DNA of 64,000 nt from Escherichia phage SP27. A program made the translations under genes and the position numbers. The stretch lies in sequence record LC494302.1; one strand, 5' to 3'. Under the pieces are notes generated by a model. That model was given only the letters and a program-made list of their open reading frames with translations. It did no database searches and was not told where the DNA came from. Shown here piece by piece: positions 1-64,000 of the stretch; positions within the stretch are counted from its first letter, which is position 1; each line of letters starts with the position of its first letter.

Positions 1-1
1 T

Positions 2-361
2 TGCATTACATTAAAAACACCTGTTAGTATTGTAATTAAAAAAAATAAAGATGATGAATTGACATTATCTATTGGTCGTGATAAAATCATTTTAAGTAAT
101 TTGTCTGAAGAAGAATTCTTTCAAAGAAGTACTATTATCGATATGAAAGATTTCACATATGAATCATTGGTTGAACTCAATACACGTTTTAACGATATTC
201 AGGAACGATTGCGACCAATTCTTCGTATCGAAGAAGAAGCCTGGATTGAAAGTATTAGGAAGATGCAAGAAATGTTGAAAGAAAATATTAACAATCTGGG
301 TAAAGCTACAATGGAATTTGGTAAAACTTTTAAACTGAACTTTTCAAAGGATCGTAAATGA
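2..361 (+). CDS. FQxST-motif family protein, 5' end cut by window edge
   Basis: Frame open from nt 2; motif SEEEFFQRSTII shared with paralogs; ATGA overlap with next gene. Confidence 0.6.
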   Translation, partial: CITLKTPVSIVIKKNKDDELTLSIGRDKIILSNLSEEEFFQRSTIIDMKDFTYESLVELNTRFNDIQERLRPILRIEEEAWIESIRKMQEMLKENINNLGKATMEFGKTFKLNFSKDRK

Positions 362-813
362 AAATTGATAATTTGATTCATGTTTTAGGATCTTTACATA
401 AAATATTATCACATCTACATGAGATAAAGAAACTGGGATTTAACATCTCAAATTCAATTGAAACTACATTTAAATATCAATCAATTACTGGTGATGGTTA
501 TTACATAATCGAATATACTTATGAAACCGATCCAGACTTCTATCCTCTTACGTTGAGAATTTATCCAACAAATCCGAGAGGAATTCACGACATATCATCA
601 ATTTCACTTGATCCAGATGGTGAAACGAGTATTGAATACAATAATGATTCAAAACCAGAATTTTACATTGATGATATTAAAATGATGTTCAACGATGAAT
701 ATGTTTTCCAACAAAGTACTGTGCATGATGTTGGAAGTACTAATGGACAATTTTGGAATACATGTTATTATCATATGATTGAAATTTGTAAATTATTAAA
801 AGGCGATGATTAA
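358..813 (+). CDS. FQxST-motif family protein
   Basis: 151-aa ORF, ATGA coupling; C-terminal NDEYVFQQSTVHD motif. Confidence 0.7.
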   Translation: MKIDNLIHVLGSLHKILSHLHEIKKLGFNISNSIETTFKYQSITGDGYYIIEYTYETDPDFYPLTLRIYPTNPRGIHDISSISLDPDGETSIEYNNDSKPEFYIDDIKMMFNDEYVFQQSTVHDVGSTNGQFWNTCYYHMIEICKLLKGDD

Positions 814-1196
814 TGAAATACAGCATTGAAGTACATTACACTACAGGGGACACTGAAACTGAAGATTCAGTTACCAATACATTGGATGTTCAATGGGAAT
901 CAAAGGATGAGGCAGTTGTAGCATTACAGTCTTTGAAAGAGCATTGGGTATTCTTTAAGAAACTCGATGATGCATATAGTAACGAACGTGCGACAATAAT
1001 CGATGAAGCCAAACATAAAGAATGGTTTGATCCAATGTCATGTGAATTCTCTTTCTTTGTAAAAATTGGAGATGAAAAAATTCCAGTACGTACACCGTGG
1101 AACGGCTACTTTGAAACTCTTCATAATGCACGAGTTGTCGCTGTTGATAATCCTGAACAAATCGATTTCGATTCATTGGACTGGAAAAAACTATGA
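813..1196 (+). CDS. hypothetical protein
   Basis: 127-aa ORF, TAATG coupling to upstream gene. Confidence 0.65.
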   Translation: MKYSIEVHYTTGDTETEDSVTNTLDVQWESKDEAVVALQSLKEHWVFFKKLDDAYSNERATIIDEAKHKEWFDPMSCEFSFFVKIGDEKIPVRTPWNGYFETLHNARVVAVDNPEQIDFDSLDWKKL

Positions 1197-1636
1197 CAGT
1201 ACTGCACCAATTGAAGAAGGTTAAGCATCCAGTTGTATATGAGGACTGGAAACGTCAGAAGCTGATGGGTGATTTTTATTTCCCAAAATCTAAAGTACTA
1301 GCAACGTCAAAAGCTATATACTTGAAATATAAGGATGAAGATTGTTTGTGTATTCAAATGGGATTCCATCCTAAAGTTGGTTTGTTTACAACAAATCAAA
1401 CATTTTATAAATTTAGAATTCAAAAAGATACATTTAGTATTCATATCGAAAAGCATGATGTACAAGATACAATTTATCGTGTGGAAAGTGAGCCTTTGAA
1501 TCTTGTTGAGATTCCGTACAATAATTTAGAAGAAATGTACTTTCAGCAGTTGACAATACAAGAAGACTTTGGTATGATAGGACTTCAAGAGTTAGAGATG
1601 ATTAAACAAATTCGTGATATCTACTTTAAGGAGTAA
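1193..1636 (+). CDS. FQxST-motif family protein
   Basis: 147-aa ORF, ATGA coupling; motif LEEMYFQQLTIQED. Confidence 0.7.
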   Translation: MTVLHQLKKVKHPVVYEDWKRQKLMGDFYFPKSKVLATSKAIYLKYKDEDCLCIQMGFHPKVGLFTTNQTFYKFRIQKDTFSIHIEKHDVQDTIYRVESEPLNLVEIPYNNLEEMYFQQLTIQEDFGMIGLQELEMIKQIRDIYFKE

Positions 1637-5975: not shown

Positions 5976-6004
5976 ATACCCAGTACTTGACTGGGTATTT
6001 TTTT
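5976..6004 (+). terminator. intrinsic terminator
   Basis: ATACCCAGT/ACTGGGTAT 9-bp stem, then T7; loop region contains GTACTTGAC. Confidence 0.65.
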
Positions 6005-10308: not shown

Positions 10309-10346
<38 letters not shown>

Positions 10347-10708: not shown

Positions 10709-11473
<765 letters not shown>

Positions 11474-13643: not shown

Positions 13644-13927
13644 TGGAATTCATTGTTGCACCTGATGAACTTAAAACATTCACGTTCAGAGATAATAACA
13701 ATTATCCTTATACAAATCATTCATTGAATTCATTACATGTTATTGCAATCATTGCATCTGAATACAGGGATAATCCATGTATTGATTTTAAAACCACTGA
13801 TGGCGAATATACATGGGTGTTCCCAAAAGATAAATATAGTTATCAAGGGGCAGTAGAAATTCGTGACTCGATTCTAAAACAAATCGAAGATGGAAATACT
13901 CATCCTAAACTAAACACTCAGTACTGA
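13643..13927 (+). CDS. hypothetical protein
   Basis: 94-aa ORF, TAATG coupling. Confidence 0.6.
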   Translation: MEFIVAPDELKTFTFRDNNNYPYTNHSLNSLHVIAIIASEYRDNPCIDFKTTDGEYTWVFPKDKYSYQGAVEIRDSILKQIEDGNTHPKLNTQY

Positions 13928-13930
13928 AAT

Positions 13931-13985
13931 CGTTTAACCCGATAGCTTCTAGTCAGTACTGATTCCTCCTTATGTATAGAAGCTA
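13931..13985 (+). terminator. long hairpin terminator
   Basis: 11-bp perfect arms GATAGCTTCTA/TAGAAGCTATC, loop contains CAGTACTG, then T6. Confidence 0.55.
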
Positions 13986-19828: not shown

Positions 19829-20052
19829 TTACTGCAACTGTATATCAAGATATCAATGAAGAATTTCATTCTAAAATTGCGTTCTTATCATTTCCTGTAC
19901 TCCCAGTAGTTGGGTCAACGTTGAATCTTACCATTTGTGGGTTTGAGAAATATTATAAAGTTCTAGATATTGAGTACTGTGCTGATGTATATTCATGTAA
20001 TAGTGAAATTGCAATTCCAGTATCAATCGATATTATTGTAAAAGAGGTTTGA
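19825..20052 (+). CDS. hypothetical protein
   Basis: 75 aa, GTGA overlap start, CAGGAG 8 nt upstream. Confidence 0.55.
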   Translation: MITATVYQDINEEFHSKIAFLSFPVLPVVGSTLNLTICGFEKYYKVLDIEYCADVYSCNSEIAIPVSIDIIVKEV

Positions 20053-20054
20053 TT

Positions 20055-20510
20055 ATGTTTAAGAATTTTATGGTTATCGTAGCAGTACTGTTTGGTACAT
20101 CATGTTTTATTTCCCCAGTACACGCAGAAGAACAACGTCAAACTATTAAAACTATTGGGACTGGTAAAACTCCCCCTAAACGTACTGCTGACGAATACAT
20201 GCCTGAAATGCGTGAACGTTATCGTCAGACATACAGGGAAAAACATGCTAATGATAAACCCATCAAGAAGCATAAATGGGAAGTTGTTAAATCTCCTTCA
20301 TTTTGTGCTGGATATGCTAAAGTAAAGATTGAGCAGCACAAAAACCAGTACTATAAAGATATGTATTACTTCTATGACTCCAGAATTTCTGACACAGATA
20401 TGATGGCAGGGAAGGTTGATAAAGAAGAATTTCTACAAGGCTATGATATGATGGACGATGACAAAATCATGGAATGCGTTGAAGTGTATGAAAAATACAG
20501 AGGCTTCTGA
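20055..20510 (+). CDS. secreted hypothetical protein
   Basis: ATG 20055 behind AGAGG; signal peptide ...FISPVHA-EEQ. Confidence 0.65.
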   Translation: MFKNFMVIVAVLFGTSCFISPVHAEEQRQTIKTIGTGKTPPKRTADEYMPEMRERYRQTYREKHANDKPIKKHKWEVVKSPSFCAGYAKVKIEQHKNQYYKDMYYFYDSRISDTDMMAGKVDKEEFLQGYDMMDDDKIMECVEVYEKYRGF

Positions 20511-20986
20511 TGTTAACAATAGTGTTGTTGGTAAGTCCATTTGTGTATTTTGTGCTGTATAATATTTTTAGTAATGCTAATCATTTTAAATATGCACAAA
20601 CAATTGCAAAGCATGAAGGTTTTTGGAATTTTTTCCCAGCATTACTATGCTCATATCTATACCATGAACGCTATTTCATTTTTCCTGAATATAAAAATTA
20701 TGGTTATGATTCTAAAGTAAATGGTATAATTGAGTACTGTATAAGAAATTATCTTAATAATAATGATAACGTCCAAGTAAGAATAGGAAATGGTAATATA
20801 TCAAGAATAGTTTTCATACCTGATATACAAGATCCAATATACTTATATCCATATGATTATAGTATTAGTGTAGGTTGTTCGATACATGGTAGTAAATCTA
20901 TGTACGATTACTTTATCTTACCACCAACACAAATTAGATTAATAGAAAAATATTTGAGGGAAAAGTTTGACAACAAAGATTCTTAG
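20510..20986 (+). CDS. membrane-anchored hypothetical protein
   Basis: 158 aa, TGATG coupling, N-terminal TM. Confidence 0.6.
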   Translation: MLTIVLLVSPFVYFVLYNIFSNANHFKYAQTIAKHEGFWNFFPALLCSYLYHERYFIFPEYKNYGYDSKVNGIIEYCIRNYLNNNDNVQVRIGNGNISRIVFIPDIQDPIYLYPYDYSISVGCSIHGSKSMYDYFILPPTQIRLIEKYLREKFDNKDS

Positions 20987-21027
20987 TATTATAATTAACA
21001 CACCAAGTAACCCAAGGGGGATGGAAA

Positions 21028-21486
21028 ATGGATGTATTAGCTACAAATTTCAAACGTAATGTTGAAGAGCGTGAAGGTTATTTTAGTATTAGTGAAGTTG
21101 TCGATGACAATTTTAAACAATACATTTTTAATAGTGCAATTAAATTAAAATGCACAAAAGATTCACCTGATCGTAGCTTTACTAAATGGATTGCGTATTG
21201 GGAAGATTCACCAGTTGCAATTGAAATGACTGTGATTACAACAGTACTTGAAACTGGTTACATCAAAGCCATTATAGTTGATAAGAAAGTCCGTACTCTT
21301 GATGAAATTAATCCATATCCAGCCCGAAATTCTAAAGTTTTTGGTGTATTGGTTGATGGTAAATTTATGATAGAAAAAGATGCAAAGGAATATGTAATTA
21401 ATAAACTTCAAACTACAGCAGAAAAAAAAGAAGTAGTGGATCAAAACTCAGTTGATGCAATCAAAAAAGCATGGGGACTAAAGTGA
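21028..21486 (+). CDS. hypothetical protein
   Basis: 152 aa, AAGGGGGA SD. Confidence 0.65.
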   Translation: MDVLATNFKRNVEEREGYFSISEVVDDNFKQYIFNSAIKLKCTKDSPDRSFTKWIAYWEDSPVAIEMTVITTVLETGYIKAIIVDKKVRTLDEINPYPARNSKVFGVLVDGKFMIEKDAKEYVINKLQTTAEKKEVVDQNSVDAIKKAWGLK

Positions 21487-21487
21487 T

Positions 21488-21910
21488 ATGTTCACACTAA
21501 GTAATGCAAAATATCTTTTTCTTATTGGTATTATTGGTTGGGTTATGGCTCCAGTGCTAAATGCACTGGGGTTTTCCGATGAACATAAACTTGTAAATGT
21601 TTCAGGTTTAATTCAGGGTATTTCATGGTATACATTAATTACATTTTCAGTGTGCATCAATACATTTGCCCGTGATTATCGACGTTTGTTATATCTGAAA
21701 GTATTTGGAACTACACGATATAGTTTTGTTTACACTTTCATTTTATTACCGTGCATGTTATATGCATTTGTATTTGATTACTATACATATCTATGGGTAT
21801 GTGGAACTATGTTTGTTATGTTGGAATACATCAGAACTGTTCAAAACTCATATGCCGATGAGTTTCATGATCTAGAAGTTAAACGAAAATTAACGGAGCT
21901 AAACAAATGA
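21488..21910 (+). CDS. multi-pass membrane protein
   Basis: 140 aa with ~4 hydrophobic helices. Confidence 0.65.
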   Translation: MFTLSNAKYLFLIGIIGWVMAPVLNALGFSDEHKLVNVSGLIQGISWYTLITFSVCINTFARDYRRLLYLKVFGTTRYSFVYTFILLPCMLYAFVFDYYTYLWVCGTMFVMLEYIRTVQNSYADEFHDLEVKRKLTELNK

Positions 21911-22332
21911 GAGGCTATAATAAGATTTGTATTTTTGTATTTTTAGTTTGTGCATTCAATTCGTTTGGTTACTACTGTACAGAAAATAATATTTCATATG
22001 GTTTAAATCCTTTGTGGTTTACAATTTCCAATGTAGCACAAATTGGTATTGCTCTTATGTCTGCACTTATGTTCTGTCCAATTGTCACTATGGATACGGA
22101 TCATGAAAGGCTTGGATTTCTCCGTGATACTGGAGACGAACCTTACAGTAGATTGATTGTGTTGTATCCATTTATTGTTATTTTAGGTACTAACATCCAA
22201 CTTGGGTCATTATCTAATAGTGTTACATCAGCAGCTATTGCTATATTTGCATTCACATTTTTTATGGTACACAAATCAGTACTTAATTGGTATATCACAA
22301 AAATGGCAGAAGAAGGTACTAAAAATACTTGA
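21907..22332 (+). CDS. multi-pass membrane protein
   Basis: 141 aa, ATGA coupling, ~4 hydrophobic helices. Confidence 0.65.
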   Translation: MRGYNKICIFVFLVCAFNSFGYYCTENNISYGLNPLWFTISNVAQIGIALMSALMFCPIVTMDTDHERLGFLRDTGDEPYSRLIVLYPFIVILGTNIQLGSLSNSVTSAAIAIFAFTFFMVHKSVLNWYITKMAEEGTKNT

Positions 22333-22357
22333 CATAATTTAGTATGTTATATATAAT
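22329..22357 (+). promoter_or_regulatory. sigma70-like early promoter
   Basis: TTGACA-17 nt-TATAAT overlapping stop of 21907..22332. Confidence 0.65.
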
Positions 22358-22391
22358 TATTTTGTTAAAAACAAATTAGAGTAAGGAACTT

Positions 22392-22643
22392 ATGAACATC
22401 GATACGGTCAAAGAACTTAGTGCTGCACTAATTAAGAATGAAGAAGTTTGTGAAGAACTTCGCAGTACTATCAAAGTTGAGTACGCACGACTCCAAGGTA
22501 TGCTTCAAGAATCAGAATGGGTAGTAACTAAATCTATCGAAGCAATCTATAAGGATATCGAATCCCTTTTCAACAAGAAAAGTAAGATTGAATCTGATTC
22601 ATATAACAAACGTAAAGAGTTATCTACTGCACTTGGTATCTAA
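22392..22643 (+). CDS. hypothetical protein
   Basis: 83 aa, AAGGAA SD. Confidence 0.65.
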   Translation: MNIDTVKELSAALIKNEEVCEELRSTIKVEYARLQGMLQESEWVVTKSIEAIYKDIESLFNKKSKIESDSYNKRKELSTALGI

Positions 22644-22649
22644 AAGTAT

Positions 22650-22678
22650 TTGACATAACAAATAATATGGAGTACAAT
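22650..22678 (+). promoter_or_regulatory. sigma70-like early promoter
   Basis: TTGACA-17 nt-TACAAT. Confidence 0.65.
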
Positions 22679-22717
22679 GTGCTCCTAATTTAATTATCAG
22701 CTAGAAAGGAAAACATT

Positions 22718-22978: not shown

Positions 22979-22983
22979 ATAAA

Positions 22984-23403: not shown

Positions 23404-23404
23404 T

Positions 23405-23902: not shown

Positions 23903-23923
23903 TTTCGTCATTAGGAGATGTAA

Positions 23924-39203: not shown

Positions 39204-39212
39204 TAATAAAAG

Positions 39213-39244: not shown

Positions 39245-39272
39245 GTTGATATTAACTACAGAGGATAAAGTA

Positions 39273-39939: not shown

Positions 39940-39975
39940 TAATAAACCATAAAAATTGCGGTAAAGGATAAAATC

Positions 39976-40257: not shown

Positions 40258-40259
40258 AA

Positions 40260-40598: not shown

Positions 40599-40607
40599 GG
40601 ATTGGTA

Positions 40608-40949: not shown

Positions 40950-40950
40950 T

Positions 40951-41295
40951 ATGTATAATTTGAACCTAATCTCATATATTATAACAACACTGTTTACATT
41001 CTATGCCTTTGTTGGTATAATCCTACTGTACTTTAAATTTTATAAAGTGTTTAACCGTTTCTATCCTTCAATGGAGAATGAGTTTTTCTTTGTGTTGTAC
41101 GTATGTTACACATTCATGGCTACATGTTTCACTGTAGTCGATGGTGTCATCGGCATTAAAACTGCTGCACCAAATGGTAGTACGCTGGTTGCATTTATTC
41201 TTACCGGATTCCTTGCAACTTATATTGCCTTCATTGCAACATGGTCAGTGGTTGAATTTCTCTTGCGACTACGAAAGAATATGCCGAATCGATAG
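40951..41295 (+). CDS. small multi-pass membrane protein, same family (member 3)
   Basis: ATG 40951 behind GGAG; C-terminus RKNMPNR. Confidence 0.7.
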   Translation: MYNLNLISYIITTLFTFYAFVGIILLYFKFYKVFNRFYPSMENEFFFVLYVCYTFMATCFTVVDGVIGIKTAAPNGSTLVAFILTGFLATYIAFIATWSVVEFLLRLRKNMPNR

Positions 41296-41304
41296 GAGAC
41301 ATAT

Positions 41305-41559
41305 ATGTTTGCATTGCGTAACAAAAACACTAAAGAAATATTATGTTTAGATACCGTATGGGATTGTGCGGGATCAACTACAGTTCTTGAAGAAGGAACT
41401 GGATATTGCGTGTTTGTTGTACATGATAGGAATGAACTCGAATTATTACTTGCTGAGTTCAATGCTGGTGGTAATCCTAACAGTACTGAATACCCTGAGA
41501 TTATCAATCCAGCACCACCAGGCTCTTATGAAATTCTACAACTGTGGGAGTTGAAGTAA
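41305..41559 (+). CDS. hypothetical protein (paralog of 43431)
   Basis: 84 aa, AGGAGA SD; MFALRNKN.. versus MYALYNKE.. Confidence 0.6.
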   Translation: MFALRNKNTKEILCLDTVWDCAGSTTVLEEGTGYCVFVVHDRNELELLLAEFNAGGNPNSTEYPEIINPAPPGSYEILQLWELK

Positions 41560-41939
41560 TGCGTCAAATGCACAAAGTAACCGAGCTAAACAAGCGTCTG
41601 GTTAAACAATCAATGTTCGAGGATAAAGAGTCTTATTATAACTTTAAACGTGCAGTAGAGGCTGCTATCCACATTCAGAAGCTTAAAGAACGTGGTTGTA
41701 TTATTCTGGAAAATGGTTCGGAAGTTGTAACGGATGACTTTAGTGTAGCGTTTGATGTTTCACCTGACGGGACGCTATCAATGCCCCGCTTAGGAACTGG
41801 AAACATGACTGTTTGGGTTGGCTTCACTATGGGGAATGTACCTGGTACTGTGTACGTAGATGATGCGGAATTGAAAGACAGTTTCAAAAACTTATCGTAC
41901 CTTGAACCACAATACGCACATGAAATGAATTTATTTTGA
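41559..41939 (+). CDS. hypothetical protein
   Basis: Trimmed to ATG 41559 (TAATG coupling, GGGAG SD). Confidence 0.6.
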   Translation: MRQMHKVTELNKRLVKQSMFEDKESYYNFKRAVEAAIHIQKLKERGCIILENGSEVVTDDFSVAFDVSPDGTLSMPRLGTGNMTVWVGFTMGNVPGTVYVDDAELKDSFKNLSYLEPQYAHEMNLF

Positions 41940-41940
41940 G

Positions 41941-41998
41941 TTGACAAACACATTCAGTACTGTATAATGTTTATCAAGGGGATGAACTTCTCATCCCC
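41941..41998 (+). promoter_or_regulatory. early promoter with CAGTACTG dyad followed by stem-loop
   Basis: TTGACA-aacacatTCAGTACTG-TATAAT, then GGGGATGA-ACTTC-TCATCCCC. Confidence 0.6.
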
Positions 41999-42015
41999 AC
42001 AATCGAGGAATTGTC

Positions 42016-42570
42016 ATGATTACTTTTAAGAAAACTGCTAACCACATCCATGAAATCTACATTAACGGTCACAAAGCTGGCCTTCTTCGTTTACTCGCCC
42101 ATCACCCTGATGCTACCGTATCTGATAATGAACCTAAAGATTGGCGTGTCTTTTTCTTTGGAAAGTACAGTGATTTTCAAGTATCAAACCTGAAGAACAT
42201 TCGTTCAGTATGCACGTTAACTGAAATTAAAGAAAAGTTAGCACAAGCATTGAAAACTAATCCAGATGGTGTTCTTCCACCTGATAACTTTGTAGAGAAA
42301 GGTTATGCCTTAGCTCATTTCAAAGATGGTACTATTCAATCTATCAGTACTGAATATGAATATCATTGGACTGAGTACTTCACTTATGGTTCGAGTAATA
42401 CATTGATGGATTCACGTAGTAAATTGGAAGAAGTACTGACTCGTATGAATGAACGCGAGCGTCAGTTATATGACAAACCAGAAATGTGGAGTTCAACTTA
42501 CATTGACCGTATTGACTATGTTATTATGACTCCAATCTTTGACACTGCTTACTATGATTCTTTGAAATAA
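42016..42570 (+). CDS. hypothetical protein
   Basis: 184 aa, GAGGAA SD. Confidence 0.65.
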   Translation: MITFKKTANHIHEIYINGHKAGLLRLLAHHPDATVSDNEPKDWRVFFFGKYSDFQVSNLKNIRSVCTLTEIKEKLAQALKTNPDGVLPPDNFVEKGYALAHFKDGTIQSISTEYEYHWTEYFTYGSSNTLMDSRSKLEEVLTRMNERERQLYDKPEMWSSTYIDRIDYVIMTPIFDTAYYDSLK

Positions 42571-42581
42571 GGATAACTTAT

Positions 42582-42758
42582 ATGAAACTACGTACTCGTA
42601 ATCGACTGATGGATGCACTGTACCATGAACAGCTTTCACTGAATGAAGTGAAGCGTCAGTTAATGTACACATATCAGTTTCCCGCTCGCATTGCAAAACA
42701 ACGTGCTAAAGAATTGCTGAAAGAAGCAATAGAGTACTGGGAATCTGATTCGTACTAA
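42582..42758 (+). CDS. 58-aa helical basic protein (possible DNA binder)
   Basis: AAGGATA SD; own translation MKLRTRNRLMDALYHEQLSLNEVKRQL...; function speculative. Confidence 0.5.
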   Translation: MKLRTRNRLMDALYHEQLSLNEVKRQLMYTYQFPARIAKQRAKELLKEAIEYWESDSY

Positions 42759-42797
42759 TATTACGTGATATGTCACGTTAATTAAGTGAGGCGATAA

Positions 42798-43049
42798 ATG
42801 AAAATATTATTAGTTCTAATACTACTAATAGTTTTACCATTTACTTTAGTATCCCCTGGACTTGCATGGAATGTATTTGTGTACTTAGTATGTACTATTG
42901 TAGTAAATGGTATCTTGTTCTTAGTTCTATTCATAAATGGAATAGGACACGGTGGAGGATGGACCAGTACTGCTGATATCGTACATAAAACCACTATGTC
43001 TTTATTTGTAATGTGGAATTTGTTCTGGACTTGGTTTGTGTTCTTCTAA
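42798..43049 (+). CDS. small membrane protein
   Basis: 83 aa, 3 TM helices, GTGAGG SD. Confidence 0.6.
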   Translation: MKILLVLILLIVLPFTLVSPGLAWNVFVYLVCTIVVNGILFLVLFINGIGHGGGWTSTADIVHKTTMSLFVMWNLFWTWFVFF

Positions 43050-43057
43050 TTAAAAAT

Positions 43058-43429
43058 ATGAATATAGATTTGAAAGGTGCAACCCGAACTGTTATCCTCA
43101 TTGGGGAATACGCTATCAAGATTCCAACCTTCAAAAGCTGGAAGTTATTCCTAACTGGAATGATAGCTAACCTCAATGAACGTTCATGGATGCAGTACTC
43201 CAATCGTAGTGATAGTGGTATCTGCCCTACTTTGTGGTCATCATGTACAGGACTAGTAACTGTACAGAAACGTTGTAAGCCAGTTCAACATAGGGGTTTA
43301 TTTTGGGTGGAGTTGTGTGCTTTAGCATTGAATTCAGAGTTAAGTACTGACTTCTTTTATTCAGATGCGAAGCCAGAAAACTTTGGTTATCTGAATGGTA
43401 AGTTAGTTAAACTTGATTATGGAGATTAA
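43058..43429 (+). CDS. minimal protein-kinase-like protein (123 aa)
   Basis: Trimmed to ATG 43058; YAIKIP lysine, catalytic DAKPENFG, DYG (DFG-like) at extreme C-terminus. Confidence 0.6.
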   Translation: MNIDLKGATRTVILIGEYAIKIPTFKSWKLFLTGMIANLNERSWMQYSNRSDSGICPTLWSSCTGLVTVQKRCKPVQHRGLFWVELCALALNSELSTDFFYSDAKPENFGYLNGKLVKLDYGD

Positions 43430-43430
43430 G

Positions 43431-43700
43431 ATGTACGCACTGTATAATAAAGAAAAGAAACGATTTGCTAAGGTTGAAATTTCGATTGATACCTTTGATA
43501 TGTTGGAGTACTGTATTGTGACGGACCTATATGCTAACTTGTATTACGTTCTTGATGACGTATCAGTACTGCAACGATTGCTTGAGAATTCCAAAAGTCA
43601 ATGCCAGGGCATCCATGATGGTTCATCTTATGAAACACCTGAGTGTTCCTACGGCTATCTGGACGGGTATGAGATTGTGAAGTTGGGGATTGTTGAATAA
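43431..43700 (+). CDS. hypothetical protein (paralog of 41305)
   Basis: Trimmed to ATG 43431 behind TGGAGA. Confidence 0.55.
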   Translation: MYALYNKEKKRFAKVEISIDTFDMLEYCIVTDLYANLYYVLDDVSVLQRLLENSKSQCQGIHDGSSYETPECSYGYLDGYEIVKLGIVE

Positions 43701-43706
43701 AGAAAA

Positions 43707-43739
43707 GGGTTGACTACGGTCAGCCCTTTTTGCTATAAT
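43707..43739 (+). promoter_or_regulatory. fused terminator/early-promoter cassette
   Basis: GGGTTGAC-TACG-GTCAGCCC, T5, TATAAT 18 nt after TTGACT. Confidence 0.7.
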
Positions 43740-43767
43740 CATTTCATCGAAACGAGAGGATGAATAC

Positions 43768-44283
43768 ATGACACGCATTAACTTAGTACACGTTAAAGAA
43801 CTTGCTGACCAACATCTGATGGCTGAATATCGTGAACTCCCACGTGTATTTGGTGCTGTACAAAAACACGTTCAAGCACGTAAGCGTGTACGTGATTTCA
43901 AAATTAACAGTACTTATCTGTTAGGTTCAGGTCATGTGACATTCTTTTACGACAAGTTGCTGTACTTACAGAAGCGTCATATCGATATTGTTAACGAATG
44001 TTTGCGTCGTGGTATGAAGATTCAAAACACTGAAGTAAACGACATTAGCGGCTTCCCTGCTGAGTTTTGTAATGACTACGTACCAACGGAGTCAGAGATT
44101 AAAATGTCTCGTGATCGTTTGATTGAGAAGCTCCAGATGAAGCCTACGTGGTATAAGTTTACTGATGTTGAATGTCCACAGTACGTTAAAGATATGCAGA
44201 ACGTAAGTAGTAAGAACGAATCTAGTACTGATATGTTCGACGAAATTGAAGAACAAATCAAAGATGAAATGAATAATTATTAA
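43768..44283 (+). CDS. denV: pyrimidine dimer DNA glycosylase (T4 endonuclease V homolog)
   Basis: [30 protein letters not shown]...KRVRDFKI...[10 protein letters not shown] nearly identical to my recollection of T4 EndoV; extra acidic ~35-aa tail. Confidence 0.93.
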
Positions 44284-44289
44284 AGGAAA

Positions 44290-44310
44290 GGGTTGACTTC
44301 GGTTACACAA
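44290..44310 (+). promoter_or_regulatory. degenerate copy of the hairpin/promoter cassette
   Basis: GGGTTGACTTCGGTTAC: left arm and loop kept, right arm and T-run lost. Confidence 0.35.
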
Positions 44311-44321
44311 AGGAACATAAC

Positions 44322-44516
44322 ATGTTATTAGTATATTCAACGCGTTTCTGGATTTCTTTTATTGTACTATCGCTAATCGGCTTCGGTTTGAGTATACTCT
44401 TTTCGTGGGATGAATTGGGTACATGGTATTATGAAGTCCCGTGGTACATGAAGATAGCTCCTTGTTATGCGGCATTGTTCGTGTCATTCCTTATTGTTGT
44501 CTTCAGCGAGGATTAG
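44322..44516 (+). CDS. small membrane protein
   Basis: 64 aa; PWYMKI segment resembles 46911 member (PWYMKV). Confidence 0.55.
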   Translation: MLLVYSTRFWISFIVLSLIGFGLSILFSWDELGTWYYEVPWYMKIAPCYAALFVSFLIVVFSED

Positions 44517-44567
44517 TTGATGTAGTATGTGCTACACCAAAGTATTTGGATATTTTAGATATAAACA

Positions 44568-44596
44568 TTGACACCTGTTATATCTTTCTGTATTAT
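44568..44596 (+). promoter_or_regulatory. sigma70-like early promoter
   Basis: TTGACA-17 nt-TATTAT. Confidence 0.6.
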
Positions 44597-44622
44597 GTAC
44601 ATCACCAAATGAGGAATACAAC

Positions 44623-44982
44623 ATGGCATCTTTAAGTGAAATCGCAGAATACAACCCACTAACAATCTCAACAATTCAACGTACAAAAACTTTTTATTTC
44701 CGTCCTGCTGATGGATGGAAACGTGGAATGAATGGTGACTATCGAGTACTGGAAGATTCACTAATCGAGCGTATCAACTCTGAACTACAGAAGTATGAAG
44801 GTGTTAAAGTTGTGCGTTCAACTTCTCGTTATTTTGAGTACTACATTGAGTCTTCAACTGTAAATGAAAACTCATCATTATCGGTGGACAACACTGATAT
44901 TCTTCGTAATGCAGTTGGTATGTTATGCAACATTGCAGAAGAAATGGGATTAACTATTAGTACTATGAGTGAGTTGGAATAA
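44623..44982 (+). CDS. hypothetical protein
   Basis: 119 aa, GAGGAA SD. Confidence 0.65.
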   Translation: MASLSEIAEYNPLTISTIQRTKTFYFRPADGWKRGMNGDYRVLEDSLIERINSELQKYEGVKVVRSTSRYFEYYIESSTVNENSSLSVDNTDILRNAVGMLCNIAEEMGLTISTMSELE

Positions 44983-44988
44983 CATAAA

Positions 44989-45021
44989 GGGTTGACTTCG
45001 GTCAGCCCTTTTTGCTATAAT
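44989..45021 (+). promoter_or_regulatory. fused terminator/early-promoter cassette
   Basis: GGGTTGAC-TTCG-GTCAGCCC, T5, TATAAT; almost identical to 43707 copy. Confidence 0.7.
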
Positions 45022-48675: not shown

Positions 48676-48697
48676 TCCAGTACTATTAAGTACTGGA
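48676..48697 (-). terminator. hairpin acting as minus-strand terminator (A6 on plus = T6 on minus)
   Basis: TCCAGTACT-ATTA-AGTACTGGA; T-run only on minus-strand side. Confidence 0.45.
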
Positions 48698-53397: not shown

Positions 53398-53505
53398 AAA
53401 TCCCTCCTTTATTCATTATACTATATTTAATACAAAAAGAAATGCCAGTATCAAGTACTGGCATTATGTTAATTAATAGTGTCTTTCTAAACACATTTCG
53501 TGCCT
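53398..53505 (-). promoter_or_regulatory. array cassette (longer copy)
   Basis: Same hairpin/promoter/SD plus ~37 extra nt after upstream stop. Confidence 0.7.
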
Positions 53506-54681: not shown

Positions 54682-54753
54682 AAATTCCTCCTTTATTCAT
54701 TATACTATATTTAATACAAAAAGAAATGCCAGTACTTGAGTACTGGCTTTATG
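54682..54753 (-). promoter_or_regulatory. array cassette
   Basis: GCCAGTACT-CA-AGTACTGGC hairpin, conserved promoter/SD block. Confidence 0.7.
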
Positions 54754-56715: not shown

Positions 56716-56786
56716 ACTTCCTCCTTTATTCATTATACTATATTTAATACAAATAAGAAAGCCAGTACTCAGTACTGGCTATTATA
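56716..56786 (-). promoter_or_regulatory. array cassette
   Basis: Conserved hairpin/promoter/SD block. Confidence 0.7.
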
Positions 56787-58045: not shown

Positions 58046-59194
58046 TCATTGTATAAATGACATATCAACTTCTGTATAACTAAGAATGTTTTGTCCAGCA
58101 ATTCCCCCCATTACTACCATAGCATACCCACAATAATATAATTGCTCAGTGTCCGTAAGTATAAGTGAACCAGATGGAGTGCGTACCAAATTACACGAAC
58201 TATTAAACGAAGTATACGAAGGAGTATATGAGTACTGATTAATATTATTACCAACACCTAATTGACCAAATCCATTCGACCCAGATGCGTATAGAACTTC
58301 ATCACCTTTAGCTATATGTGATGCCATGTTACTAACACACGTATATAGAGTATAAACTCCTGAACTCAATAATGTCGGAGTTTTGTATTGTATATCGGTA
58401 GATGAAGAAGTACCACCTGTGCCAAATTCGTTCCCGTATTGTGCACCGAACTGTTTACCACAAGCGTACAAATTATTATCCGATTTAATAAAAAATGTAC
58501 TTTGATAACTTACATCAAAATCTATAACATCCGAAGCAATCATCGTCACCCCAGTAATAGAAGTTTGATTACCTGTACCTAACTGATAGTAATAGTTAAA
58601 ACCACAACCCCATAAAGTATTATCTTCTTTTAGGTATATGTTACCAACTGCCTTTTTAACCGAAGTTATAGTATCTACCCTTTTGAATGTGTTAAAAGAA
58701 TTAATGTTTGTACCATCACCAAATGATGATAGGTTCGAGTTATTGTTAACTCCACAACAATACAACGTACCATCGTTTGTTATCAAATTCACCTTCATAT
58801 CATTAAAACTACTCATGTATTTTATATCAGAAACATTAATACCACCTGATGTTATCCACGTAGTACAGTCCGTCCACAAAGTTTTTGTATCAGTTACACC
58901 AGTGAATGCCTTCGTGTTACCAGTGATAAAAACTTTTCCAGTACCTTTCTCTTCATACAATTGACAACTACTACTGTTATCTTCCAATAGAACTCGTTTA
59001 ACATTCTCCGCACAAAGAATAAATTTACTCGATGCTACACCTGTACCAGTACCCCAATTCGTCGAAGAAGATGCATACAACTTATTAGTATAAGTATCAT
59101 GAAGATACATAGAATCACTTGAATATATTTTAAAACGCCTATCCTTACCAGGGGCAATATTCCCATAATTCATCATTCTTACAAAAGGTAACAT
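58046..59194 (-). CDS. RCC1-like repeat protein with MLPF tag
   Basis: MLPFVRMMNYGNIAP; GFNYYYQLGTGN, GSNGFGQLGVGN. Confidence 0.8.
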   Translation of the reverse strand: MLPFVRMMNYGNIAPGKDRRFKIYSSDSMYLHDTYTNKLYASSSTNWGTGTGVASSKFILCAENVKRVLLEDNSSSCQLYEEKGTGKVFITGNTKAFTGVTDTKTLWTDCTTWITSGGINVSDIKYMSSFNDMKVNLITNDGTLYCCGVNNNSNLSSFGDGTNINSFNTFKRVDTITSVKKAVGNIYLKEDNTLWGCGFNYYYQLGTGNQTSITGVTMIASDVIDFDVSYQSTFFIKSDNNLYACGKQFGAQYGNEFGTGGTSSSTDIQYKTPTLLSSGVYTLYTCVSNMASHIAKGDEVLYASGSNGFGQLGVGNNINQYSYTPSYTSFNSSCNLVRTPSGSLILTDTEQLYYCGYAMVVMGGIAGQNILSYTEVDMSFIQ

Positions 59195-59265
59195 ATTTCC
59201 CTCCTTTATTCATTATACTATATTTAATACAAATAAGAAAGCCAGTACAGTGTACTGGCATTATA
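59195..59265 (-). promoter_or_regulatory. array cassette
   Basis: Conserved hairpin/promoter/SD block. Confidence 0.7.
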
Positions 59266-60405
59266 TTATTTCCACGGTAGAAGTGAATCAGGAACCCTTG
59301 TTGGTACAGTAGTTGAAGACATTCCAGTAAGATTGGGTACACCACATGTGTATAAATTATTATATTCGTCAACTAACATCGTATAAGAATAGCTCTTACA
59401 AAAACTACTAAGATTACTACCTTCTAATGCAGTAAGATCCATTTCAGCGAATGATGTTATATACATATCAGTTGTACCAATACCACATTGACCATTTGAA
59501 TTAAGGCCACATGAAAATAACTTATTATTATTATTAATTATACAGGATGGTCCGGTAAGGTTTGTCCCAAGCTCACCCACCAACTCCACTTCTCCTTGGA
59601 ATGATAAATTTGGAATTAATGTACTCATTGGGGCTACTGACCTATTTCCTGTACCTGCTTGTCCATAGTCGTTAATAGATGCAACTTTAACATTACCATC
59701 ATTAAGAAATATATAAGAAGTTTCATTTGTATTGACTGCTTTAATTGCATTACTAATCGAAGTATCTTGTGTAAATGTGAGCAAGTTTTGTGTCGTCGTT
59801 CCTGATACAAACGTTCTACCTGCATACCAATATGAACCATCATTTAGTACTAATCCAGTACTATATATTGCACAACCAGCACTGATAACATTTTCTATTG
59901 TACTATAGGTGAATCGTGAAACGCTTGAAGTTGATCCATTCCCAAAAACACCACCAGTACCAGCACCACAGTAGAACCACTTTCCATTTTTTAAAAATAC
60001 ACGCATACACGAAGATATCACAACACTATCAATATCATCTGCACTGACACCGAAATCAGTAAAGTTCTGTGTTATATCAACCCAAACGCCGTTAGTGTTT
60101 GAAGATAGTATTGGAATAACAGTACGTCTACCAGTGTACCAAATAGTACCATCTTTCTTTATAGCAATTGTTCCTTGTACCCCACCCCAATATCGTGTAA
60201 CATTTGAGTTGACAAGAGTCCATTCAGTTGAAGAGTCCAATGAACCATTACCACTTTGTCCATATGCTGAAGAACCAAACCAATATAGATTGCCATTTGT
60301 GTGTAAATAAAATTTGGCATCAGCAGAACATTGTAACCTGTTTTTAGGTAGAATCAGTTCAGGTGCGATATTCCCGTACTTAACCATTCTTGCAAAAGGT
60401 AACAT
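59266..60405 (-). CDS. RCC1-like repeat protein with MLPF tag
   Basis: Tracked ORF reads through the cassette; trimmed to MLPFARMVKYGNIAP at 60405; GLNSNGQCGIGT, NDYGQAGTGN. Confidence 0.8.
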   Translation of the reverse strand: MLPFARMVKYGNIAPELILPKNRLQCSADAKFYLHTNGNLYWFGSSAYGQSGNGSLDSSTEWTLVNSNVTRYWGGVQGTIAIKKDGTIWYTGRRTVIPILSSNTNGVWVDITQNFTDFGVSADDIDSVVISSCMRVFLKNGKWFYCGAGTGGVFGNGSTSSVSRFTYSTIENVISAGCAIYSTGLVLNDGSYWYAGRTFVSGTTTQNLLTFTQDTSISNAIKAVNTNETSYIFLNDGNVKVASINDYGQAGTGNRSVAPMSTLIPNLSFQGEVELVGELGTNLTGPSCIINNNNKLFSCGLNSNGQCGIGTTDMYITSFAEMDLTALEGSNLSSFCKSYSYTMLVDEYNNLYTCGVPNLTGMSSTTVPTRVPDSLLPWK

Positions 60406-61585: not shown

Positions 61586-61593
61586 ATTCCCTC

Positions 61594-62796
61594 CTATTGT
61601 TGCCATAACTGCGATGGCATTAATGTTAGTGTAGTAATACTATAAGTGCCATCTGGCAATCTACCACCATTTCCATTCCAGCCACCACATGCATATAATT
61701 TATAATCTTTAGTAATTATTATGGTTCTGCTCCAATCTTTAGATGCCATAAGAACATTGTCATAACCACTACTTATTGCACTAAGATTAAAAATATTCCA
61801 AGTTCTAACTAATGTATTAGTTCCATTACCTTCTTGACCATATGAGTTAGCACCACTACTTCTAACATATGGTGCGTATTGTGCCATAGGTGCACCAATT
61901 GATGCATTTCCCATATTACTTGGACAAATAAAAGTACTGTACTTACTTACATCAACCGTGACCGATGTGTTCCTAATTGGTGTTAGCTGATTTACCGATG
62001 TAGTCGTACCATTACCAGCTTGTCCAGAACTGTTAGCCCCGCTATAATATACAGACCCACCAGTAGTAAACCACCAAGTAACATCGTATGTAGTACTAAT
62101 ATGTTCTACATTACTAATCACGAATTTGTTCAAATATACAACAGAACTACCACCACATCCACTTTCACCAAAGTTATCCTTACCACAAAACCATGCATCT
62201 TTATTTGATTTGATATAGTGCGTTCCTTGTAATGAACATGCCATATGTGTAACTTCACCCATATTAGTCATAACTGTGAGTGTAGGGATGGAATTTTTAT
62301 TCCCAGAGCCACATTCACCATTAGTATTTCTTCCACACGCAATTACTCTACCATCGGTTAATAATATTCTAGTACTTTCACCTATATATACACTCTTGAT
62401 CATATTAGCCATAACACCTATTTTATTAAATGCAACAGTAACATCAGTCCATGTTGTCAAATAACCATTAACAGGTGTTGCATCTCCATAATCAGAAAAT
62501 GCACCAACCGACCCAGTGTAGTATATTTTATTATCCAAATCAATCATCAATGAACCTTGAACACCAAGCCAAAAGGCTGCACAGTTCCTTGCAAGTACTG
62601 TAAATGACGAAACTGCTGCTGAATTCCCAAGACCAAATTGATAAAAGTTATTACTACCATAACCATATAAAGTATTAGTTGGGTTATGGAGATACATACA
62701 GTTTGTATAATGTTGTTGTAAAACATCTGAGAACTCTACAGGTTCTGGACCTGGTGCAATATTTGCGTACTTAACCATTCTTCCAAAAGGTAACAT
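61594..62796 (-). CDS. RCC1-like repeat protein with MLPF tag
   Basis: MLPFGRMVKYANIAP; GRNTNGECGSGN, GANSSGQAGNGT, GANSYGQEGNGT. Confidence 0.85.
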   Translation of the reverse strand: MLPFGRMVKYANIAPGPEPVEFSDVLQQHYTNCMYLHNPTNTLYGYGSNNFYQFGLGNSAAVSSFTVLARNCAAFWLGVQGSLMIDLDNKIYYTGSVGAFSDYGDATPVNGYLTTWTDVTVAFNKIGVMANMIKSVYIGESTRILLTDGRVIACGRNTNGECGSGNKNSIPTLTVMTNMGEVTHMACSLQGTHYIKSNKDAWFCGKDNFGESGCGGSSVVYLNKFVISNVEHISTTYDVTWWFTTGGSVYYSGANSSGQAGNGTTTSVNQLTPIRNTSVTVDVSKYSTFICPSNMGNASIGAPMAQYAPYVRSSGANSYGQEGNGTNTLVRTWNIFNLSAISSGYDNVLMASKDWSRTIIITKDYKLYACGGWNGNGGRLPDGTYSITTLTLMPSQLWQQ

Positions 62797-62867
62797 ATTT
62801 CCCTCCTTTATTCATTATACTATATTTAATACAAAAAGAAATGCCAGTATCAAGTACTGGCATAATA
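62797..62867 (-). promoter_or_regulatory. array cassette
   Basis: Conserved hairpin/promoter/SD block. Confidence 0.7.
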
Positions 62868-64000
62868 TTATCGGTTAAATTTAAAATCTGTTATGTGTGT
62901 CCATGTATGATTTAATGGGGTACTCATTGGTGTAAAGCCAGCAGGGTCTGACAAAGCTGTACCACGTGCGTACATAAATTGATTGCCAGTACAATCCATT
63001 ATAGCATAAGAACGTGTTGCTGTGCCACATTTGAACCCAACTGCACTACTTGGGGTCGGTAATACTTCAAATGTAGGTGCATTTGAACTACCACCCCCAT
63101 CTTTTGTTCCAGCTATGTACAGAACTCCATTAGTATCAATGATTAAGTTAGTCCAATATGCTTGTTCTCGACCAGCATAAAAATATGTTAAATCACCGGG
63201 TACAAATGGTAACGTTCCTTTATATATTGTGGTATTAACATTCACTGGTGCACCAGCTACACCCCATGAACTCATATAGTTTCTCCCACTTGCGTAGAAT
63301 GTAGTTCCTTTACCGTAAAGTATTAATGTTGCTTGACTTGTTCGCATTGCATTATATTCAAACTCAGGATCATCAGTAGCGTCCTTAAAAATCTGTGTCC
63401 ATGTTGTTATATTGCCAGTAGTTGTAACACCCATTTGATAATAATAATTATCACCAGTAGCATAGAATTCTTTAGGGCCAGTTTGTACAATTGCATTCCC
63501 ATTAGTTAACCAAAAATCTAATGTATTAGTCTTGATCTTGGTTGGTGTGTAATTCGCCACGGTATTTCCTTTTCCGAAATAACCATTAGCGTTATTTCCA
63601 TGACCCCATAAATCACCATTAGTTGTGCGTAGGAATAATGTACCAGTATTGAATCCAACTTTTTCTATAGTACTTATGTCAATACCAACAGTCGTGTACT
63701 TCGTTGTAAAATCTTGAAAAGTACTCCAATAATTAGATGAACCATTAAACATGGTTTGTCTACCAGTGTACTTCACTTTATTATCGTTAGTGATAAGTAA
63801 TGTCCCCCACACTGACGCGAACATTAACTTAACATTTTCCATAACAAAGTATGGCTTACCGTATGCTGACGCGGTAGTGTTTAAACCTAATAGTTGTCCA
63901 TCATTACTACAACCCCATACTTCGCCGTTATCCAAAAGCATCAACATAGTAGGTTTGCCGGATGATACATCCAAAAAGAAATCTTTTGGTGTTGGTACAC
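62868..64000 (-). CDS. RCC1-like repeat protein, 5' end beyond window
   Basis: Frame stays open to nt 64000; WGCSNDGQLLG, GHGNNANGYFGKGN. Confidence 0.7.
   Translation of the reverse strand, partial: VPTPKDFFLDVSSGKPTMLMLLDNGEVWGCSNDGQLLGLNTTASAYGKPYFVMENVKLMFASVWGTLLITNDNKVKYTGRQTMFNGSSNYWSTFQDFTTKYTTVGIDISTIEKVGFNTGTLFLRTTNGDLWGHGNNANGYFGKGNTVANYTPTKIKTNTLDFWLTNGNAIVQTGPKEFYATGDNYYYQMGVTTTGNITTWTQIFKDATDDPEFEYNAMRTSQATLILYGKGTTFYASGRNYMSSWGVAGAPVNVNTTIYKGTLPFVPGDLTYFYAGREQAYWTNLIIDTNGVLYIAGTKDGGGSSNAPTFEVLPTPSSAVGFKCGTATRSYAIMDCTGNQFMYARGTALSDPAGFTPMSTPLNHTWTHITDFKFNR

Follow-up and report, generated by a model that had tools for sequence, protein, structure and literature searches.

Hyper-abundance and conservation of the palindrome AGTACT in Escherichia phage SP27 and other RaK2-like jumbo phages

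Results and discussion

Abundance of AGTACT in the window and the whole genome

The stretch of Escherichia phage SP27 DNA analysed here (positions 1 to 64,000 of LC494302.1; the window) is crowded with one palindromic hexamer, AGTACT, which we are highly confident is a real, selected signature at the level of the DNA. It occurs 192 times (3.0 per kb), compared with 20.0 ± 4.0 (maximum 29) in 100 shuffles that preserve dinucleotides and 21.9 expected from base composition. A sequence-only reading of the window had estimated a ten-fold excess, which if anything was an understatement, and its local counts of eight copies in nt 1-2000 and seven in nt 30001-32000 were exact. The k-mer z-scores it had named as a check place AGTACT first of all 4096 hexamers under Markov models of orders 1, 2 and 3, with observed/expected ratios of 9.7, 5.0 and 2.6, respectively. 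At order 4 the ratio is only 1.28, because that model already holds the inflated pentamers AGTAC and GTACT and is circular. The octamer CAGTACTG was found 38 times in the window, with 0.9 expected (order 1).

The window shows 98-99.8% identity to the Asteriusvirus jumbo coliphages JP4, CRJP21, PBECO4, 121Q and phAPEC6, whose genomes are 348-374 kb with direct terminal repeats of about 20 kb, and it comes from an Asteriusvirus of the PBECO4/121Q group within the RaK2-like clade. Whole-genome counts were made on CRJP21 (OQ708376.1; 346 kb of unique sequence), where the equivalent of the window lies at approximately 279-343 kb. They left the enrichment unrefuted: CRJP21 contains 893 copies of AGTACT (99 expected), again the top hexamer, and 185 of the octamer (4.3 expected).

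Placement in genes and effect on codons

Open reading frames (ORFs) were called for this analysis, giving 128 in the window (86% coding). With these, 153 AGTACT sites fall in coding sequence, 38 are non-coding and one lies across a gene boundary; the density is 4.2 per kb in non-coding and 2.8 per kb in coding DNA. As the sequence-only reading had observed, all three frames are used (AGT-ACT 73, xxA-GTA-CTx 46, xAG-TAC-Txx 34). The 153 coding copies compare with 44 ± 6 when synonymous codons are shuffled inside each gene, 25 ± 5 when codon order is shuffled and 99 ± 6 when third positions are shuffled with protein and dinucleotides kept, so codon-preserving shuffles (25-99 copies) do not reproduce the observed count.

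These controls bear directly on whether the excess is a compositional artefact or the product of repeated elements, whether through codon or dinucleotide bias, Ser-Thr-rich proteins or copies of mobile hairpin, promoter and terminator cassettes. Local context does contribute, since the dinucleotide-preserving shuffle of third positions regains 99 of the 153 coding copies; hairpin and promoter cassettes do carry AGTACT, and the low order-4 ratio fits this explanation. However, every shuffle falls 9-25 standard deviations below the observed count, 80% of the sites are in unique coding sequence in three frames, and T4, with equal G+C, lacks the enrichment. An artefact of this kind, to which we gave almost no credence, is already refuted by the shuffles and outgroups.

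The pressure for AGTACT is strong enough to shape both codon choice and protein sequence. In the CRJP21 genome, AGT-ACT encodes 55% of Ser-Thr dipeptides, where codon usage predicts 15%, and AGTACT is carried by 40% of x-Val-Leu opportunities (9% expected) and 35% of x-Tyr-x opportunities (6% expected). The dipeptides themselves are skewed only in the direction of the motif: Ser-Thr is 1.44-fold enriched versus 0.97-fold for Thr-Ser, Val-Leu 1.38-fold versus 0.99-fold for Leu-Val, and Gln-Tyr 1.47-fold versus 1.05-fold for Tyr-Gln.

Distribution across the RaK2-like clade

A homologous structural region (about 42 kb) was compared in eight relatives, Ecwhy_1, JNE01, A4, RaK2, Serratia BF, GAP32, Munch and EJP2, across which the identity of a marker protein falls from 79% to 32%. 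AGTACT was the top hexamer in all eight (5.5- to 7.4-fold enriched). It is also the top hexamer in phages XbC2 and XaC1, isolated on Xanthomonas (6.5- and 7.1-fold, respectively), so that the groups in which it ranks first comprise Asteriusvirus, Alcyoneusvirus, Eneladusvirus, Mimasvirus, Munch, EJP2, XbC2 and XaC1. Enrichment persists between genera whose proteins are just 26-38% identical. It was not seen in T4 (1.4-fold, at equal G+C) or in the distant 349 kb Vibrio jumbo phage 2.275.O (0.65-fold), and a 50 kb sample of E. coli K-12 contains 0.06 AGTACT per kb, versus 2.6-3.0 per kb in the phage. Enrichment of AGTACT is a trait of the RaK2-like clade and is independent of the host.

Conservation and turnover of sites

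When positions 20000..44999 of the window were aligned with phage vB_Ec-M-J (85.5% nucleotide identity), 50 of the 69 aligned AGTACT sites were kept (72.5%), compared with 48% of all hexamers and 52% of hexamers of the same composition (P = 0.0008). Nineteen sites were present only in the window and 15 only in the relative; gain and loss are therefore balanced. Over longer distances, in five core genes aligned over nine phages, 47% of CRJP21 sites were still intact in RaK2, against 20% for arbitrary hexamers, and 48 of 78 AGTACT columns were lineage-specific. Synonymous-site conservation, another check named by the sequence-only reading, gave an identity of synonymous codons of about 0.72 inside AGTACT versus 0.58 outside; codons were kept more inside the motif in all 14 distant comparisons, each single test being weak (n ~30).

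Spacing, flanks and neighbouring words

AGTACT is spread evenly along the length of genes. Its density is highest in the terminal repeats (6-7 per kb), about 3 per kb in early regions and 1.1-2 per kb in structural and replication genes. Compared with random draws from 1648 synonymous opportunities, matched for class and 20 kb block, the observed spacing is more even (variance/mean at 500 bp 0.93 versus 1.09 ± 0.05, P < 0.001), with 27 gaps longer than 1.5 kb versus 35 for the draws (P = 0.02). In the window, the densest coding stretch has seven sites in 625 bp (31051..31675) and the longest gap without a site is 1615 bp (58237..59845).

The two half-sites AGT and ACT are enriched together solely at zero spacing, AGT-N(1-6)-ACT and the permuted palindrome ACTAGT being at or below chance. 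The favoured context in the window is C-AGTACT-G, and the two flank preferences are independent, as CAGTACTG accounts for 20% of sites, matching 40% x 49%. Genome-wide, the sites show a weak symmetric signature: position -1 is C in 45% and G in 8%, positions -3/-4 are T in 42%, and positions -7 to -9 are A in 38-42%. This pattern, AAA-NN-TT-N-C-AGTACT-G-N-AA-NN-TTT, recurs in pooled distant genera and may reflect the footprint of a reader or a preference in DNA bending.

The flanks also bear on a host DNA-binding protein as the target, which the phage might titrate or recruit, for example the E. coli nucleoid-occlusion factor SlmA. Interference with host cell division is common among phages, which would suit such a role, and the core of the SlmA consensus, which we take to be GTGAGTACTCAC, is identical to AGTACT. 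Nevertheless, the flanks of an SlmA site are those that AGTACT uses least, with G at -1 in 10% of copies and C at +1 in 6%; the complete 12-mer is absent and GAGTACTC occurs four times, and enrichment is equal in the phages isolated on Xanthomonas. A host-factor site is already disfavoured and, in our judgement, very improbable.

Words differing from AGTACT by one mismatch are mildly enriched (1.2- to 2.2-fold), all but AGGACT/AGTCCT. The neighbours that deamination would produce, AATACT and AGTATT, are not depleted (491 versus 395 expected in the genome, 1.24-fold; 76 versus 76.5 in the window) and thus there is no signature like that of very-short-patch repair. One-sided GTACT (BGTACT or AGTACB), counted outside an ACT-free block described below, is 1.5- to 2.2-fold enriched, no more than variants with an inner mismatch, whereas the palindrome is nine-fold enriched. 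In CRJP21 the one-sided words show no bias between coding and template strands (373 versus 384) and no polarity along the genome. A polar motif of the Chi or FtsK-orienting polar sequence (KOPS) type was excluded by the palindromic word and by these unbiased, non-polar one-sided variants. Symmetric flanks, absence of strand bias and lack of a very-short-patch signature would together fit a dimeric reader of duplex DNA.

Alternatively, abundance might be a by-product of biased repair: a nuclease specific for mismatches in the motif, possibly linked to a methyltransferase, would turn near-cognate words into AGTACT. Precedents are Elhai's model for the cyanobacterial palindrome HIP1 (PMC4390886) and very-short-patch repair in E. 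coli. Such a drive would mimic site conservation and is compatible with the high saturation of synonymous opportunities and the balanced turnover, and two orphan methyltransferases are encoded by the phage. T4-like phages recombine intensively, which would give a repair bias many heteroduplexes on which to act. In contrast, the near-cognate words are not drained: AATACT/AGTATT are undepleted and the one-mismatch neighbours, AGGACT/AGTCCT apart, are mildly enriched. Vsr and MutH are not among the families listed in the domain census (below), and a site-blind drive does not predict spacing more even than a random draw of opportunities. We regard biased repair as an unlikely source of the palindrome.

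The ACT-free block of Asteriusviruses

The two longest AGTACT-free stretches of CRJP21 lie just inside the left terminal repeat. One of them, at 27771-35270, has no ACT at all on its coding (+) strand over 7,500 bp (about 145 expected), while AGT is at its normal frequency; the next-best run in the genome free of any trinucleotide lacks just 25 expected copies. The ban holds in all frames, and the Thr codon ACT falls to 0% in the block from 42% in the adjacent region. TCT is partly depleted (0.23- to 0.57-fold), CCT and GCT not. Over the Asteriusviruses the block spans 4.4-7.8 kb with about 17 co-oriented genes and zero ACT, against 87-174 expected. Homologues, in coordinates within the sampled loci, are at 9005-16515 in 121Q, 8352-16190 in Ecwhy_1 (82% nucleotide identity) and 9728-14174 in JNE01 (4.4 kb). 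Block proteins diverge fast, one that was tested being 24-29% identical to its homologues in JNE01 and Turkey5. As the block and its AGTACA sites (below) are found in four independent assemblies, with protein identity down to 24-29%, an assembly artefact was rejected. The block was not found in RaK2 in a scan limited to the syntenic 50 kb, and Pfam and PHROG searches of block proteins gave matches of unknown function only.

Within the block AGTACA takes the place of AGTACT, with 40 copies versus 3.6 expected (5.3 per kb). They are distributed over the three frames (12/11/10), with six non-coding and one in an ORF call on the opposite strand, include non-synonymous contexts (x-Val-His/Gln) and keep the C and G flanks; 12 of the 13 Ser-Thr dipeptides in the block are AGT-ACA. 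Outside the block AGTACA is just 1.6- to 1.7-fold enriched. A 5/6 site is under strong selection solely where 6/6 is barred, which points to selection on local density with diminishing returns. Only variants at position 6 have accumulated (AGTACA, and in JNE01 also AGTACC), and none of the six with an inner mismatch, which counts further against biased repair. The sequence-only reading had preferred DNA-level selection to codon or dinucleotide bias, a preference now supported by the shuffles, the saturated opportunities, the non-coding density, persistence in the clade, retention of sites and the AGTACA of the block. The causes it had listed, namely a binding or modification site, a recombination or packaging signal and a nicking site, all stay candidates on the sequence evidence.

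Because transcripts of the block cannot contain AGUACU, the pressure is on DNA and not on this RNA word. A motif AGUACU acting in transcripts, such as a processing or protein-binding site, had some appeal, as a palindrome yields the same RNA word from both strands, so that every transcript carries it, and the phage has a rich set of RNA-processing genes. However, an RNA motif has no need of a palindrome, density peaks in non-coding DNA, including promoter regions upstream of -35, one-sided variants show no coding-strand bias and the block keeps dense AGTACA in its DNA even though its transcripts lack AGUACU. An RNA-level motif is accordingly given very little weight.

The RNA-processing genes are an observation in their own right. 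The 50-130 kb region of CRJP21 has an unusually rich RNA repair and processing set: PNKP phosphatase, T4 Rnl1-type ligase, RlaP, a cyclic-phosphate-processing REC domain, an enzyme of the CCA-adding/poly(A) polymerase family, a Nudt16-like decapping Nudix, PIN_4, PhoH, Sir2 and a ribosome hibernation factor. This suggests intense conflict over RNA cleavage, perhaps relevant to the ACT/ACU-free block.

The banned word is the exact half-site of AGT/ACT, a coincidence with a chance of 2/64 for a random trinucleotide, and a single mechanism centred on ACT, be it primase initiation, nicking of one strand or an RNase acting at ACU, was therefore kept under consideration. Conceivably, though we think it doubtful, one recognition system for ACT/ACU, specific to the clade, underlies both the palindrome and the ACT-free operon. 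AGT/ACT would then be an inverted pair, dense on phage DNA, and the operon a naturally 'ACU-less' one that escapes an activity aimed at ACU, whether from an endoribonuclease of phage or host, from a nickase acting on one strand or from the phage primase. Taken alone, the block may give a transcript resistant to a nuclease directed at ACU, or it may be a strand on which neither priming nor nicking can occur. It resembles the engineered single-protein-production system in which ACA-less transcripts are immune to MazF (PMC5408214), since in both a long transcript is wholly without one trinucleotide; unlike that system, the phage block is natural. The literature searched contained no natural trinucleotide-free phage operon and no ACU-only endoribonuclease.

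In the single-strand version of such a signal, ACT would be the trinucleotide of the clade primase and (A)GTACT a strong start (primer pppGUACU), the palindrome being the cheapest way to place a start on both strands. Bacterial and phage primases recognize template trinucleotides, and T7 prefers pentanucleotide sites. The identity of the banned word with the half-site agrees with this, as do the dense GTACT kept by the complementary strand of the block (AGTACA on the + strand, 5.3 per kb), the DnaB and Toprim proteins encoded, and a density of about one site per 350 bp with mild evenness, which would suit priming. On the other hand, one-sided GTACT outside the block is only 1.5- to 2.2-fold enriched against nine-fold for the palindrome, and ACT is already so common (19 per kb) that enrichment of the hexamer is needed only if a long site is required. 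RaK2 is enriched for AGTACT, yet its syntenic 50 kb yielded no ACT-free block. The ban being total, even one copy of ACT would seem to do harm, as by cleavage, and not merely to allow priming, and the symmetric flank signature reaches about 9 bp to either side. A priming signal is thus quite unlikely.

The second AGTACT-free stretch of CRJP21 (20016-25194; 5.2 kb) consists of arrayed paralogous ORFs, small (about 70 aa) and overlapping. Both GTAC and CAGT are under-represented in it, and TGTACT occurs ten times versus 1.2 expected, mostly in a conserved motif of the paralogs (gcTGTACTt/g).

Candidate readers and proposed explanation

Two orphan methyltransferases are encoded in the genome: a Dam-family adenine enzyme (PF05869, 173 aa), encoded at 59509-60030 in CRJP21 and as gp088 in RaK2 and adjoining the same cytidyltransferase gene in both, and a C5 enzyme (PF00145) just upstream of the window, at 278049-278909 in CRJP21. 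Adenine methyltransferases have been reported in RaK2, CBB, GAP32, phAPEC6 and Sharanji, and RaK2 DNA has 5-methylcytosine in CpG context. DNA of Asteriusvirus fEgEco12 was cut as predicted by ten ordinary enzymes (ScaI not among them), and is therefore not globally hypermodified. The phyletic distribution of the methyltransferases (tblastn; 2221 and 1150 records) was of no use as a clue because both families are too widespread among phages.

A Pfam census was made of 342 ORFs of 105-900 aa, as pseudo-alignments, with the families listed only in part and most proteins without a match. It found one TnsA-like PD-(D/E)xK protein, a T4-type topoisomerase II, DnaB, Toprim proteins and the large RNA-repair set. 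The labels 'restriction enzyme' and 'endonuclease V' in the CRJP21 annotation are mis-registered, and domain searches of the window ORFs around them identified a kinase, a DenV glycosylase and an AAA ATPase and nothing else.

We put forward, as about an even call, that AGTACT is a selectively maintained signature of double-stranded DNA read by a symmetric, clade-specific factor, a viral counterpart of the highly iterated palindromes (HIP) of cyanobacteria. That the word is read as duplex DNA by such a factor is held with moderate confidence, and any specific function with low confidence. A two-fold symmetric, probably dimeric factor encoded by the clade would read AGTACT as duplex over a footprint of about 24 bp. 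Selection would act on density or coverage, at about one site per 350 bp (some 45 times that of the 50 kb host sample), and not on particular sites, with a minority of copies co-opted into early promoters and terminator stems. The mark might distinguish or organize phage DNA, in protection, in strand discrimination during repair or recombination, or in compaction. Most speculatively, the reader could be the clade-conserved orphan Dam-family adenine methyltransferase or some dimeric DNA-binding protein. For the octamer CAGTACTG, the contrast oligonucleotide is CAGTCCTG.

Several points weigh against this proposal. Relatives of the candidate Dam-family methyltransferase in other phages mostly bear a GATC annotation. 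The families listed in the census, in which most ORFs were unmatched, included no ScaI-like nuclease, MutH or Vsr, and neither digests nor methylomes bearing on AGTACT were found in the literature searched. A strong biased-repair drive would likewise produce conservation above background, the flank signature is weak and may owe something to coding context, and the evenness of spacing is modest and at 2 kb bins not significant.

Promoters, terminators and array cassettes

Early promoters, above all those of the terminal repeat of a related genome, have the form AAA-AGTAC-TTGCAA/TTGACT-N17-TATAAT, and some have a second copy in AGTAC-TG-n-TATAAT; AGTACT thereby abuts the -35 and supplies the TG of the extended -10. 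Two such pairs are found on the + strand of the window, as the sequence-only reading had noted in placing AGTACT in promoter spacers. At 10313..10346 an early-type promoter has two AGTACT (10313/10333) 20 bp apart, AAAA-AGTACT-TGACT (-35) and AGTAC-TG-A-TATAAT (extended -10), and a second promoter-like pair, AGTACTGGACAATAGTTTTCAGTACTGATATAAT, is at 11084..11117 (sites 11084/11104).

AGTACT in terminator stems, also proposed earlier, was found as well. An intergenic hairpin at 48676..48697, TCCAGTACT-ATTA-AGTACTGGA (-14.3 kcal/mol), has AGTACT in both arms (48679/48689), and a stem at 13920..13960, taken as a terminator at 13931 in the sequence-only reading, has AGTACTG at both ends. The terminator placed at 5976 has a lone intergenic AGTACT (5982..5987). 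Stems of the type GCCAGTACT..(A)GTACTGGC sit between most genes of an array of about 12 RCC1-like paralogs on the minus strand (49850-63998). Each paralog has about 380-430 aa and RCC1-like beta-propeller repeats, and between them lie cassettes of about 72 bp that are almost identical, in which a GCCAGTACT..GTACTGGC hairpin is joined by a T-run, the promoter-like TATTAAATATAGTATAAT and a Shine-Dalgarno sequence. Terminator-like hairpins between paralogs, likewise on the minus strand, are at 54728..54747 (GCCAGTACT..AGTACTGGC, then a T-run and a TATAAT-type promoter) and 56761..56779 (GCCAGTACTGAGTACTGGC). The cassette spacer at 53398..53505 (minus strand) has the hairpin GCCAGTACTTGATACTGGC, with one perfect AGTACT and one degenerate arm; equivalent spacers are at 55906-55977, 57975-58045 and 62797-62867, and that at 59195-59265, GCCAGTACACTGTACTGGC, has no perfect copy.

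Pairs of AGTACT 20-23 bp apart number 23 genome-wide versus about nine expected, a modest excess, and promoters and terminators therefore take up a minority of the copies. AGTACT is not explained as an element of sigma-70 promoters or intrinsic terminators, as 153 of the 192 sites are inside coding sequence and uniform along genes.

The window contains mainly small early-type ORFs, together with a sigma-70-family factor, an AAA ATPase and a virion protein. The kinase found by domain search is T7 gp0.7-like (39240-39914) and the DenV glycosylase is at 43768-44283. Product names in OQ708376.1 are shifted against the genes: a 300 bp ORF bears the name 'terminase large subunit', 'methylase' is placed on the gene just upstream of the true Dam-family ORF and the RCC1 labels are on small plus-strand ORFs. 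The annotation is untrustworthy and its labels were not used.

Loss of other palindromes and further word biases

The same genomes have lost almost all other palindromes that contain G and C. Of the 64 palindromic hexamers, 24 are absent from the window, and 23 (450 copies expected) are absent from the 346 kb of CRJP21, as is GCGC (177 expected). GCGC is zero in every member of the RaK2-like clade sampled and present in T4, the Vibrio jumbo phage and the host (6.8 per kb). AGTACT is the sole strongly enriched palindrome, the next in the window being GAATTC (two-fold). It is not a by-product of the purge, because the purged words are at least two mutations away and too few, with about 450 expected copies against an excess of about 800. 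Classical avoidance of restriction sites by phages is thus seen here in extreme form, but AGTACT runs the opposite way and has accumulated.

Spared from the purge are ACGCGT, CACGTG, GTGCAC and AACGTT, perhaps owing to protection by the C5 methyltransferase. RaK2 DNA was described in 2013 as showing 'restriction resistance', which may be due largely to missing sites and not to modification. The most under-represented hexamers of the window are TATTTA (18 versus 62 expected) and TAAATA (26 versus 73). Both look like the core of the late promoter of T4 type, TATAAATA, which for CBB and GAP32 has been reported as ATAAATA, a likeness suggesting that accidental late promoters are avoided on either strand. 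CRJP21 has 25 copies of the E. coli Chi octamer GCTGGTGG (18 on the + strand, seven on the - strand; about three expected), and in structural regions the core CTGGTG ranks with the leading hexamers of every clade member; this may stem from a codon effect (Leu-Val, Gly-Gly) or from a role linked to RecBCD.

Comparison with known systems

The closest known phenomenon is HIP1 (GCGATCGC), the highly iterated palindrome of cyanobacteria, whose function is still unknown (Xu, Lawrence and Durand 2018, PMC5861425; Elhai 2015, PMC4390886). Both are short palindromes hyper-abundant genome-wide, in all frames and intergenic DNA, conserved beyond neutral expectation and found lineage-wide; orphan DNA methyltransferases occur in the same genomes, and selection and biased repair compete as explanations for both. 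In contrast to HIP1, AGTACT is another and shorter word (a hexamer, or the octamer CAGTACTG) of an AT-rich virus and not of a bacterial chromosome. Enrichment of HIP1 is 15- to 300-fold, that of AGTACT nine-fold as a hexamer and 43-fold as an octamer, and the phage motif coexists with near-total loss of other GC-containing palindromes, its methyltransferases being candidates only. AGTACT thus shares the descriptive features of a HIP (abundance, use of all frames and intergenic DNA, conservation) but is not HIP1.

The Neisseria DNA uptake sequence and the Haemophilus uptake signal sequence are asymmetric self-marking 9-12-mers, present about once per kb and read by the bacterial competence machinery. 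Like AGTACT they are dense words, much rarer in foreign DNA, that often occur as inverted pairs forming terminators, as AGTACT does in the array hairpins; unlike them, AGTACT is palindromic and belongs to a lytic phage with no uptake step. Dam GATC, with MutH and SeqA, is likewise a short palindrome whose usefulness depends on density, and a Dam-family methyltransferase is encoded by the phage. However, GATC is a tetramer near chance frequency that needs no enrichment, and no MutH-like or SeqA-like protein was seen in the phage among the census families listed.

AGTACT is also the type II restriction-modification target of ScaI and its isoschizomers, the same hexamer with palindromic recognition by dimeric enzymes, but phages normally avoid restriction sites, as here with 23-24 other palindromes, whereas AGTACT accumulated. 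Primase sites, GTC-based pentamers in T7 and GTT/GCT in T4, are similar in being short one-strand words needed often on both strands, and the ACT core is implicated by the block. To our knowledge, known primase sites are not palindromes and are not enriched many-fold; unlike AGTACT they are non-palindromic, and the one-sided sites of the phage are barely enriched. No paper linking AGTACT to this clade was found in the literature searched.

Conclusions

If AGTACT is functional, a dense sequence code has gone unnoticed on the chromosomes of a whole clade of therapeutically relevant jumbo phages, whose hosts include E. coli, Klebsiella, Salmonella, Serratia, Cronobacter, Erwinia and Yersinia, with two members isolated on Xanthomonas. 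The clade is recognizable from raw sequence as AGTACT-rich, GCGC-free and purged of palindromes, and restriction systems of the ScaI type should be potent barriers to it or useful diagnostics for it. Because the phage can be recoded and its fitness assayed in days, it would be a tractable model for the 30-year-old puzzle of HIP1. Finding the reader would reveal a new DNA transaction, or a mechanism for telling self from non-self, in phages that have neither a nucleus nor hypermodified DNA.

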